From Escherichia coli (lineage in GTDB: Bacteria; Pseudomonadota; Gammaproteobacteria; Enterobacterales; Enterobacteriaceae), in the NCBI RefSeq assembly GCF_003018255.1, contig NZ_CP027440.1: a DNA stretch of 64,000 nucleotides. One strand, given 5' to 3'. Below the pieces are notes generated by a model, which saw nothing but the letters and a program-made list of their open reading frames with translations, made no database searches and was not told the origin of the DNA. Made by a program: the position numbers and the translations under genes. Shown here piece after piece: positions 11,061-20,264 of the stretch (position 1 is the stretch's first letter; each line of letters opens with the position of its first letter).

Positions 11061-11651
11061 TTTATTTATTATACTACAAGCACAACGACGCCCGCAGAGA
11101 CGTAACCTCTGACGCAGACAGATGCTAATTTTTAAGTGTTAAAAATAGCTGATAGCTGAAAAACAAGGGGCTGCCAGGTACGGGGATAAGACTGTATAAT
11201 CTTTATGTAGTTCATATGTTAAGTGTTTGTGTGTTTGGTTTGTATGGTTATTTTGTTTTATATATTGTATTTAAATGTGATTTAGTTTGTCAATTAATTG
11301 CATATTAAAAATATGTTCTATGCACAAATATGGGTTATATACATTATGTGAATGTATTATGTGGTTGATTGAGAATGATACAGTTATATATGCAATGTGA
11401 ATATAATGGTTTCATTATATGTATTGCTGTTAATAAAATAAAAGACATTATAATCTGCTTGTTTATGCATTAATAAAATGAAGTGCAGTAACTTACTGAA
11501 TTGTCAGAGTGGGTGTAATTGCATATTTAATCTTTCCTTTGCCACTTTTTCGCTAAGAATAAAATCATCTGTGCGATAACAACTAATTCTTTTAATGAAT
11601 GTTTTTATTCCTGAATACTGCTCCCATAACAAGACAGGGGAGCAGACAATC

Positions 11652-14218: not shown

Positions 14219-15066
14219 GTGAACGTCTGAGCATTACCCCGCTGGGGCCGTATATTGGCGCACAAATTACGGGGGCCGACTTAACGCGCCCGTTAAGCGA
14301 TAATCAGTTTGAACAGCTTTACCATGCGGTGCTGCGCCATCAGGTGGTGTTTCTGCGCGATCAAGCTATTACGCCGCAGCAGCAACGCGCGCTGGCCCAG
14401 CGTTTTGGCGAGCTGCATATTCACCCTGTTTACCCTCATGCTGAAGGGGTTGACGAGATCATCGTCCTGGATACCCATAACGATAATCCGCCGGATAACG
14501 ACAACTGGCACACCGATGTGACATTTATTCAAACGCCACCCGCAGGGGCGATTCTGGCGGCGAAAGAGTTACCCTCGACCGGCGGCGATACGCTCTGGGC
14601 CAGTGGTATTGCCGCATATGAGGCGCTCTCTGTTCCCTTCCGCCAGCTGTTGAGCGGGTTGCGTGCGGAGCATGATTTCCGTAAATCGTTCCCGGAATAC
14701 AAGTACCGCAAAACCGAGGCTGAGCATCAACGCTGGCGTGAGGCGGTCGCGAAAAATCCACCGTTGCTACATCCGGTGGTGCGAACGCATCCGGTGACCG
14801 GTAAACAGGCGCTGTTTGTGAATGAAGGCTTTACCACGCGAATTGTTGATGTCAGCGAGAAAGAGAGCGAAGCCTTGCTGGGCTTTTTATTTGCCCACAT
14901 CACCAAACCGGAGTTTCAGGTGCGCTGGTGCTGGCAACCAAATGATATTGCGATTTGGGATAACCGCGTAACCCAGCACTATGCCAATGCGGATTACCTG
15001 CCACAGCGGCGGATAATGCATCGGGCGACGATTCTTGGGGATAAACCGTTTTATCGGGCGGGGTAA
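14215..15066 (+). CDS. tauD: taurine dioxygenase (alpha-ketoglutarate-dependent)
   Basis: 283 aa; recognised as TauD, with His-x-Asp metal-binding region WHTDVTF. Confidence 0.95.
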
Positions 15067-15073
15067 GGGGGAA

Positions 15074-15097
15074 ATGCCGGGTTGGATAACCCGGCAT
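15074..15097. terminator. bidirectional hairpin between convergent tauD and hemB
   Basis: atgccgggtt-ggat-aacccggcat perfect 10-bp stem in the 39-bp convergent spacer. Confidence 0.6.
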
Positions 15098-15105
15098 AAT
15101 GATCA

Positions 15106-16080
15106 TTAACGCAGAATCTTCTTCTCAGCCAAATCCAGCGCAAAGTAGCTGAAAATCAGATCCGCACCCGCACGCTTAATCGAACCTAAGCTTTCGAGCA
15201 CGACTTTCTCTTCATCTATAGCACCCGCCAGCGCGGCGAACTTAATCATCGCGTACTCACCGCTCACCTGATACGCGCCAATCGGCAATTCAGTACGTTC
15301 ACGCAGCTCACGCACGATGTCGAGGTATGCTCCGGCAGGTTTAACCATCAGGCAGTCTGCGCCCTGGGCTTCATCCAGCAGTGACTCACGAATCGCCTCA
15401 CGACGGTTCATTGGGTTCATCTGATAGCTTTTGCGGTCGCCTTTTAATGCGCTTCCGGCAGCTTCACGGAACGGGCCATAAAAGGAGGAGGCGAACTTGG
15501 TCGAATACGACATAATCGCCGTATCTTTAAAGCCCGCAGCGTCCAGCGCCTGGCGAATCGCCTGTACCTGACCATCCATCGCAGCGGAAGGGGCGATGAA
15601 ATCTGCGCCTGCAGCAGCTGCAACCACGGCTTGCTTGCCTAAATTTTCCAGAGTCGCGTCGTTGTCGACGCCATGCTCGCACAGCACACCGCAGTGACCG
15701 TGAGAAGTGTATTCACAGAAACAAGTGTCTGACATGACGATCATTTCTGGCACAGTCTGCTTGCAGATGCGCGACATACGCGCCACCAGTCCATCTTCCC
15801 GCCAGGCGTCGCTGCCGGTTTCATCGGTATGGTGAGAGATGCCGAAAGTCATCACGGAACGAATACCGGCGTTGGCGATGCGTTCAATTTCGCGTGCCAG
15901 ATGTTTCTCTGGAATGCGCATCACGCCTGGCATGGCTTCAACGGCTTTGTAGTCGTCAATTTCTTCTTCAACAAAGATCGGCAACACCAGGTCGTTAAGG
16001 CTAAGTGTTGTCTCTTCAAACATAGCGCGCAGCGCAGGAGATTTGCGCAGGCGACGAGGGCGTTGGATTAAATCTGTCAT
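15106..16080 (-). CDS. hemB: porphobilinogen synthase (delta-aminolevulinate dehydratase)
   Basis: ATG at 16078-16080 ([13 protein letters not shown]...), 324 aa; track ORF extends 11 codons further. Confidence 0.95.
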
Positions 16081-16606
16081 GGTCTGCCTGATGTTTGTGG
16101 AATCGAGGAGCATAGTATACCTGAAGCAGGCTGGGTGTGTTTTACGAAAGTTGTCGCGATGTTGACAAAAAGAGAATGAAAAAGAGGTCAGGACATCTTT
16201 GTAATAGAAATAGCAATAATTTCATATTCACTGAAAATATTTTTTAATTTTTATTTATAGCCATAGATTATTGTTTTTGGGGATTTGGTGACGTTTTCAA
16301 AAAGTGAATAACTTAAAGTTCATTGCTTATTGATACATTATTTGTCTGTTTTGGTTGTTTTATATTTTCATGGTCTATGTTTTAAAATTAACGCTTTCGT
16401 TAACGTATTGAAATATTGTGTTTTTGTTATTTCTTTCTTTGTGTGTGTTCACGTGCTTTATATATGTCCGCAATCGGACTTAGGGGAAAGAATAATTGAA
16501 CCATTCCTCTATAACGCCGCATAATCGTAAACGCGAAACATAATATGTTTTCTATGCATTGATAATTGATGGATCAACTTATTACGTCCCTGAGGAGGGA
16601 TGACAA

Positions 16607-19576
<2,970 letters not shown>

Positions 19577-19577
19577 A

Positions 19578-19636
<59 letters not shown>

Positions 19637-19637
19637 A

Positions 19638-20264
<627 letters not shown>

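Follow-up and report, generated by a model that had tools for sequence, protein, structure and literature searches.

The closest described system to the DNA considered here, the gap between hemB and the autotransporter adhesin gene ehaB (yaiT) of Escherichia coli, is the promoter of yaiU/seaB (STM0373) in Salmonella Typhimurium, a positional ortholog that adjoins hemB and lies upstream of iprA (bioRxiv 10.64898/2026.01.14.699485). Binding of H-NS to the yaiU promoter has been demonstrated by electrophoretic mobility shift assay, isothermal titration calorimetry and chromatin immunoprecipitation (ChIP) with quantitative PCR, with calorimetric dissociation constants of 0.29-0.46 µM over the four promoters tested, that of yaiU included (PMC10657408). 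In the same work repression of yaiU by H-NS is taken as already reported, its expression was measured by quantitative reverse-transcription PCR in an hns(K107A) mutant, and cyclic di-GMP (c-di-GMP) was found to prevent the binding of H-NS and to relieve the repression (PMC10657408). Long AT-rich upstream regions and genes of low GC content are likewise found at H-NS-silenced adhesin promoters of E. coli, such as that of the intimin-like FdeC, and adhesins of this kind show low expression in laboratory strains and an adhesin phenotype on overexpression only. The gap studied here occupies positions 16081-16606 of a window of 64,000 nucleotides, the whole stretch of E. coli DNA that was analysed (contig NZ_CP027440.1). 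It shares the hemB - autotransporter - iprA layout of the Salmonella locus, which also has an AT-rich promoter fragment. Nonetheless, H-NS binding, repression and relief by c-di-GMP were measured in Salmonella, whereas ehaB is known here from sequence alone, and the passenger domains of the two adhesins are only about 50% identical. We consider it probable that the gap combines two regulatory regions, mostly that of ehaB, in which the AT-rich part most likely acts as a platform for silencing by H-NS. The parts of the gap on the side of ehaB are the following:

16161-16259: left AT-rich block, GC 0.22, which includes a 26-nt pure A/T run; 84-94% identity among Escherichia, 35-52% across genera
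16260-16457: hypervariable AT-rich core, 198 bp, GC 0.29, rich in T and G on the sense strand of ehaB; candidate platform for H-NS-type silencing
16466-16479: 14-bp dyad GTCCG-CAAT-CGGAC, with conserved arms and variable spacer; candidate transcription-factor site
16496-16525, plus strand: predicted sigma70-type ehaB promoter from a consensus scan, with -35 TTGAAC (16496-16501), an 18-bp spacer and -10 CATAAT (16520-16525)
16532-16606, plus strand: predicted 5' leader of ehaB, about 75 nt, with a start deduced from the -10 element
16555-16609, plus strand: predicted closing helix of UGCAUU (16555-16560) with AAUGCA (16604-16609), which pairs the start codon in both the minimum-free-energy and the centroid structure
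16566-16578, plus strand: box TTGATGGATCAAC, a short hairpin with (A)UGGA in the loop; candidate CsrA site
16585-16602, plus strand: predicted hairpin CGUCCCU-GAGG-AGGGAUG between the Shine-Dalgarno sequence (SD) and an anti-SD, which sequesters the SD (7 bp, dG -9.8 kcal/mol)

The gap was aligned with three other E. coli and then with 43 hemB-linked loci from Escherichia, Citrobacter, Kluyvera, Trabulsiella, Pseudocitrobacter, Yokenella, Leclercia, Lelliottia, Pluralibacter and others. The 4-fold sites of hemB served as a neutral yardstick; their identity to the window is 93-94% in K-12 and O157 and about 49% in other genera. Against this yardstick the gap splits into a hemB part, an AT-rich stretch, and the ehaB promoter with its leader. 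The hemB-linked gaps are 370-620 bp long, with a GC content of 0.31-0.44 (0.31-0.39 in 43 of 44). The sequence-only reading of this DNA had described a long AT-rich divergent control region between hemB and yaiT, free of credible open reading frames (ORFs) and likely to carry the regulatory logic of the autotransporter. The gap is indeed as described, 526 bp between hemB on the minus strand and an intact ehaB on the plus strand, and the regulatory logic can be recognized in the promoter, the upstream dyad and the structured leader, which are kept in 46-48 of the 52 homologous loci. The term divergent control region is only loosely true: it holds for ehaB, whose regulatory region this is, but overstates the share of hemB, which is small and has a conserved part of about 80 bp. 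No other part of the region is as conserved as the leader, which that reading overlooked.

The AT-richness of the gap is clear, with a GC content of 0.331 versus 0.514 for the window and of 0.22-0.29 in its middle 297 bp. Of the 200-bp segments of the 64 kb, only 0.3% have a GC content of at most 0.25, and these are found in two places, this gap and 11191-11291. The gap is also among the five longest of the window, and its AT content lies markedly above that of the genome over hundreds of base pairs, as in H-NS-silenced regions. A second long AT-rich gap (11061-11594, 534 bp, GC 0.30, minimum 0.215 per 200 bp) is situated between divergent genes, upstream of tauA. The repeated motifs and long T/A tracts that had been remarked on were recovered in part. 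GTTTT is enriched, with 8 copies, all on the plus strand, versus 2.8±1.4 in dinucleotide shuffles (0 of 1000 reach 8) and no copy of AAAAC, while TTGTT is not (3 versus 2.9 expected). Runs of four or more T or four or more A occur at the level given by composition, and a single A/T run is over-long, with 26 nt (16234-16259) versus 14.2±2.9 expected (P=0.003).

The two parts of the AT-rich stretch (16161-16457) differ in their conservation. The left block is conserved only within Escherichia. Between Escherichia alleles with 94-98% identity in hemB, that of the core is 63-81%; within E. coli the core is 63-74% identical between strains whose hemB 4-fold sites are 93-94% identical, with sharp borders. 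Between genera its identity is at the random level (0.50-0.60 versus 0.54±0.02 for shuffles). A 206-bp core query of 5426 E. coli genomes returned 1506 with at least 95% identity, 438 with 80-95%, 1197 with 60-80%, and approximately 2285 with no match. The allele classes of the core do not track the passenger of ehaB, given that the window and the compared locus L004 are 93% identical in the passenger and 64% in the core, while the window and E. whittamii are 48% and 81% identical, respectively. The core has the look of a cassette that was exchanged, or else of an old polymorphism.

What is retained is the composition. The core has a GC content of about 0.25 with more T than A on the ehaB sense strand in 41 of 44 loci, and the length, AT content and T>A skew of the stretch are kept across more than 15 genera and more than 40 species. 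Over 51 loci (16200-16460 and the homologous cores), the T>A and usually also a G>C asymmetry on this strand is seen to outlast the complete turnover of the sequence. The Buttiauxella homolog of ehaB is found downstream of proB-proA and is still preceded by 405-493 bp of AT-rich DNA, together with the same promoter and leader. In Atlantibacter, Leclercia and one C. freundii isolate the upstream neighbour is not hemB either, and the AT-rich DNA, the T>A skew and the promoter are all retained. The AT-rich stretch thus belongs to ehaB and not to hemB, because it accompanies ehaB to relocated loci, because its length, core GC and T>A skew persist while its sequence does not, and because the hemB of E. 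coli strain 4848, described below, retains no more than some 50 native bp.

The part of the gap next to ehaB (16458-16606) behaves in the opposite manner, with 90-100% identity within Escherichia and long runs above 90% across genera. A conserved A-rich AAAGAATAA precedes the predicted promoter, whose TTGAAC-18-CATAAT, with the hexamers and spacing of a sigma70 promoter, is exact in 46 of the 52 homologous loci, from more than 15 genera. The dyad, with the consensus GTCYG-N4-CRNAC, stands invariantly 16 bp upstream of the -35 element in 48 of the 52 loci, and it occurs once in the 64-kb window. Given the start near 16532 that we infer from the -10 element, its centre falls near -60, which would be the position of a class I activator. 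A 183-bp segment with promoter, leader and signal peptide is at least 95% identical in 5378 of the 5426 E. coli genomes, and this segment and the gap core are each present in one copy per genome. A ChIP peak of SoxS has been reported at hemB<>yaiU in Salmonella, where the site was not identified; the marbox AYNGCACNNWNNRYYAAAY, bound by MarA, SoxS and Rob, has no match with up to three mismatches in 16081-16606.

The leader is 98.7-100% identical in Escherichia, above the level of hemB coding DNA. Its predicted fold (58 nt) has a dG of -16.6 kcal/mol and a z-score of -2.9, and the ehaB start region is the third most structured of the 59 translation starts of the window. The SD hairpin is the only helix that RNAalifold retains; the UCCCU of its anti-SD shows no or almost no variation over 50 sequences, and most one-sided changes are compatible with wobble pairing (G-U/A-U). 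In the closing helix 81% of the cells are paired over 36 distinct sequences, with no double changes, and the AUG has a predicted pairing probability of 0.92-0.99. In the box, T16566, T16567, A16569 and G16571 are invariant and G16572 and A16573 are conserved in at least 90% of the 50 sequences; its stem has one compensatory change, from G-C to U-A, and its loop is predicted to be unpaired (pairing probability of 0.02-0.08). At the DNA level, the box also reads as the palindrome TTGAT-GG-ATCAA. Paired cells amount to 83%, versus 34-46% in slid controls, which suggests a conserved leader structure but does not prove it. An RNA thermometer was considered and rejected, given that no melting is predicted: from 20 to 45 °C the pairing of the SD stays at 0.71 and that of the AUG at 0.92-0.99. 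No paralogous leader was found elsewhere in E. coli in the 5426 genomes.

Taken together, these features could operate as follows. About 300 bp of AT-rich DNA, constrained in composition and length, would serve the binding and spreading of H-NS and keep the adhesin off under most conditions; the sigma70-type core promoter TTGAAC-18-CATAAT would drive ehaB, with an activator or anti-silencer bound to the dyad near -60; and the leader of about 75 nt would lock the SD and the start codon in a stable structure beside an exposed GGA loop. With SD and AUG locked, translation would need, or be further blocked by, an RNA-binding factor, for which CsrA is the leading candidate.

The sequence-only reading had taken the long T/A tracts and repeats as typical of silenced surface-adhesin promoters. 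Its silencing part finds support in the Salmonella ortholog, while the nucleation motif and phased tracts that might have marked such a promoter were not found in the gap. Homology and composition make action of H-NS the best-supported mechanism. The conserved promoter and leader are very likely shared with Salmonella, because they are seen in Citrobacter and at least 15 other genera. Several observations weigh against this interpretation. The homology between the Salmonella promoter and that of ehaB is itself deduced by way of Citrobacter and other genera, and a literature search returned no paper that combines yaiT or the old locus tags with H-NS in E. coli. The sequence TCGWTWAATT, which we take to be the high-affinity nucleation motif of H-NS, has 0 matches with up to one mismatch in the gap, and with up to two mismatches it has 6, versus 4.2±2.0 in composition-matched shuffles, and is not enriched; such a motif is not obligatory for H-NS targets. 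The A/T tracts show no helical phasing, with no excess of Fourier power at 10-11.5 bp (P=0.98), and six GTTTT copies of the core look in phase by a hand calculation that is uncorrected. The gap has fewer TpA steps than its composition predicts. Transcription starts of ehaB and hemB were not found, the Cappable-seq supplement being without a match at the expected coordinates. For the leader, the support from covariation is weak and true covariation sparse, because the key helix hardly varies.

The flanking genes, the hemB side of the gap and the reading frame that had been singled out are the following:

15106-16080, minus strand: hemB (porphobilinogen synthase), from the ORF list and the RefSeq annotation of near-identical genomes
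16081-16160, minus strand: hemB-proximal conserved block, 59-90% mean column identity per 20-bp bin over 43 loci
16081-16103, minus strand: leader and ribosome-binding site of hemB
16119-16114, minus strand: -10-like TATACT, putatively part of the hemB promoter
16137-16155: conserved box GTGTTTTACGAAAGTTGTC, within the hemB-proximal block
16330-16524, plus strand: 64-codon ORF with a TTG start, unannotated and not a gene, which spans the hypervariable core and the conserved promoter
16607-19555, plus strand: ehaB (yaiT), intact autotransporter adhesin of 982 aa (Pfam Autotransporter beta-domain, E 1e-46)
19641-20264, plus strand: iprA (yaiV), winged-helix putative regulator (NCBIfam equivalog IprA, E 3e-137; Pfam HTH_46)

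The HemB protein is 100% identical to HemB of the WP_001295337.1 type, and the product of ehaB is 94-99% identical to proteins named EhaB among the matches listed. The flanking genes are named hemB and 'autotransporter adhesin EhaB' in RefSeq. The yaiT of K-12 is the same gene as ehaB, there a pseudogene disrupted by IS3. The hemB gene is essential, and it uses only the first 50-80 bp or so of the gap, with the leader, the -10-like TATACT and the conserved box. In E. coli strain 4848 (NZ_CP103596.1, 4181-4300), an IS1-associated deletion has removed the gap beyond about 16131 together with nearly all of ehaB, so that about 50 bp of native DNA (16081-16131) are left upstream of hemB. The AT-rich core is therefore dispensable for hemB. 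The end of IS1 places a TTGGCA 18 bp upstream of TATACT in this strain, and the two together resemble a hybrid hemB promoter. On the other side of hemB, the tauD-hemB spacer (15067-15105) has 39 bp here and in strain 2014C-3338 and 106 bp in K-12 and O157; an element of about 67 bp is thus absent from this lineage.

It may be asked whether the AT-rich DNA has any function at all. If only the promoter and leader, about 150 bp, were functional, the AT-rich 300 bp would be neutral filler from mutational bias, and the binding of H-NS would be incidental. The divergence of the core between genera to the level of shuffled sequence, its lack of specific motifs, and its loss together with ehaB from the viable clinical isolate 4848 are all in line with such a filler. 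Neutral filler is expected to shrink under deletion bias. The spacer, in contrast, has persisted at 370-620 bp, with a GC content of about 0.25 and the T>A skew, in more than 40 species, and it has followed ehaB to new contexts. Furthermore, the AT-rich promoter fragment of Salmonella binds H-NS in vivo and the gene responds (PMC10657408). On this balance, filler is a rather unlikely explanation, and far less likely still is that the gap hides a gene for a small protein or small RNA (sRNA), or a phase-variation switch (invertible, of the Dam/OxyR type or by repeat slippage). Many adhesins are phase variable, and the gap contains ORFs of 31-64 codons, one of which, of 36-40 codons (16137-16247, plus strand, starting with GTG or ATG), has stayed open in every Escherichia allele examined but not in Citrobacter. 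Outside Escherichia, however, the ORFs are not conserved, and most of their differences are non-synonymous. For the ORF at 16137-16247, such changes and the overlap with the hemB promoter block indicate that it is probably not a gene. As had been claimed, the 64-codon ORF is not a credible gene either, being broken or replaced in K-12, O157 and other alleles. No feature is annotated inside the gap in curated MG1655 or by PGAP, and the Rfam 15 covariance models gave 0 matches at E<=10 on either strand of 15000-17500. Among switches, inversion of the fimS/UpaE type was rejected, the alleles being colinear in the same orientation only, and flanking inverted repeats nowhere exceeding 71-91% over 10-24 nt. 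The Dam/OxyR type of agn43 was discarded with a single GATC in 526 bp, at 16572, repeat slippage with no long simple repeat in the gap, and a repeated or mobile element with one copy per E. coli genome.

Beyond silencing by H-NS, to which we hold for the AT-rich part, the additional layers of control may be ascribed to different factors. The neighbour IprA (YaiV) could be a dedicated regulator that binds the GTCCG-N4-CGGAC dyad at about -60 and activates or counter-silences ehaB, a more specific form of the link to yaiV raised by the sequence-only reading. It carries a winged HTH domain (PF15977, E 6e-31), and its gene comes immediately after the ehaB homolog wherever enough sequence is available, also at relocated loci that lack hemB as neighbour. 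The fixed distance of the dyad from the -35 element in 48 of the 52 loci would also suit this role, and IprA is cited as influencing fim expression in Salmonella. Synteny alone is nonetheless no proof of regulation, and with a single copy of the dyad in the window nothing points to autoregulation at iprA; the link is circumstantial, a case of guilt by association, and we find it rather unlikely that IprA acts in this way. For the leader, CsrA may be the main control layer, with a dimer that bridges the AUGGA loop (16569-16573) and the GGA motifs of the SD (16594-16600) and that would block the ribosome or remodel the SD hairpin. A stretch of 32 nt contains three A(N)GGA motifs, of which one is in the hairpin loop and two are at the SD (AGGA/AGGGA at 16593-16600), the first two GGA being 23 nt apart, which agrees with the pattern of a CsrA site (at least two A(N)GGA 10-63 nt apart, one on the SD and one in a loop). 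The loop GGA is conserved in 49 of 50 sequences while the stem pair covaries. The CsrA-controlled leaders of pgaA, glgC and cstA, listed with yaiT in Table S1 of CSRA_TARGET, likewise have several GGA around the SD with one presented in a loop, and the GGA spacing in the ehaB leader is compatible with a CsrA dimer, as in those leaders. In classical repressed targets of CsrA the SD is not pre-closed, whereas that of ehaB is in the hairpin of -9.8 kcal/mol; with the SD already sequestered without protein, the direction of any CsrA effect is unclear. Activation by CsrA through the opening of an SD hairpin occurs in ymdA. CSRA_TARGET, a sequence-based predictor, gives yaiT among 159 E. coli targets, its table flagging no experimental support for yaiT, and control by CsrA is a prediction alone; yaiU and yaiV are listed further on in the supplement, in a table that most likely covers Salmonella (PMC4066749), and are predictions as well. 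The palindromic form of the box may instead point to a protein operator in the DNA. We thus regard CsrA as a tentative possibility, ahead of the envelope-stress sRNA MicA, which would pair with the ehaB translation start and repress it as it does ompA. Twelve contiguous pairs are possible between nucleotides 10-21 of MicA (GCAUUUGUUAUC) and GAUGACAAAUGC (-9 to +3), with a duplex of -21.3 kcal/mol versus -23.2 for ompA (P=0.013 versus shuffles). The duplex was computed with the 5' 30 nt, full-length folding having been uninformative and discarded. Nonetheless, 3 of 64 background start regions match MicA equally well, MicA was the sole sRNA tried, and its target site lies in a part of the leader for which base pairing is predicted. 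The supplementary files of an Hfq interactome study in enteropathogenic E. coli (EPEC) do not name ehaB or yaiT, and a literature search returned no paper that pairs ehaB with CsrA, Hfq or MicA. This modelled pairing is a weak lead, and we think it quite unlikely to reflect regulation. That ehaB-iprA forms a relocatable module with all three layers, that is a cassette-exchanged H-NS silencer, a promoter governed by the co-inherited IprA at the dyad, and a leader closed by default that CsrA would open or clamp and on which MicA would act as a second input, is an unlikely proposal as a whole. If true, it would link adhesin synthesis to c-di-GMP, Csr and envelope-stress signalling.

The GC content of the module is low, with 0.47 for ehaB and 0.40 for iprA, between hemB (0.54) and ampH (0.55). 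The EhaB allele of the window has 82-85% identity with Citrobacter homologs and only about 61-62% with the homologs of E. whittamii, E. albertii and one Escherichia sp.; at the DNA level, the passenger of the K-12 type shares about 50% identity with the ehaB of the window. This pattern suggests old allelic lineages that were shared or exchanged across genera. The ehaB-iprA spacer (19556-19640) contains a strong conserved hairpin, AATGCCCGTCAAGGATTTGACGGGCATT, with a GGA in the loop in Escherichia and Citrobacter; in several other genera a T-run comes after it, and it resembles a terminator, about 25 nt before the SD AAGGA of iprA. Just upstream of this hairpin are a constitutive promoter described in the literature, TTCACT-18-TTTAAT, and a predicted CyuR site.

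EhaB and Salmonella SeaB are conserved adhesins studied as virulence factors, and SeaB is also a vaccine candidate. What keeps the native ehaB silent is a practical bottleneck, because phenotypes appear only on artificial overexpression. The present analysis narrows the targets to a silencer-like stretch of about 300 bp, a 14-bp dyad at about -60 and a closed leader of 75 nt. The hypervariable silencer beside the invariant promoter and leader also offers a clean natural example of regulatory DNA constrained in composition versus regulatory DNA constrained in sequence. Current understanding is not overturned by these observations.

When compared with known systems, the gap shares features with the switched or horizontally replaced intergenic regions of E. 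coli, namely a sharply bounded segment with discrete allele classes and a divergence far above that of the flanking genes and of synonymous sites. It differs from them in that the AT-rich core alone is replaced, while promoter and leader remain constant and the identity of the promoter is not switched. The gap is probably an ordinary region of the H-NS-silenced kind, whose unusually conserved ehaB promoter and leader were previously uncharacterised. What distinguishes it from H-NS-silenced adhesin promoters in general is the hypervariability of its silencer-like DNA, in contrast to the promoter and leader beside it, which belong to the best-conserved non-coding DNA of the locus.

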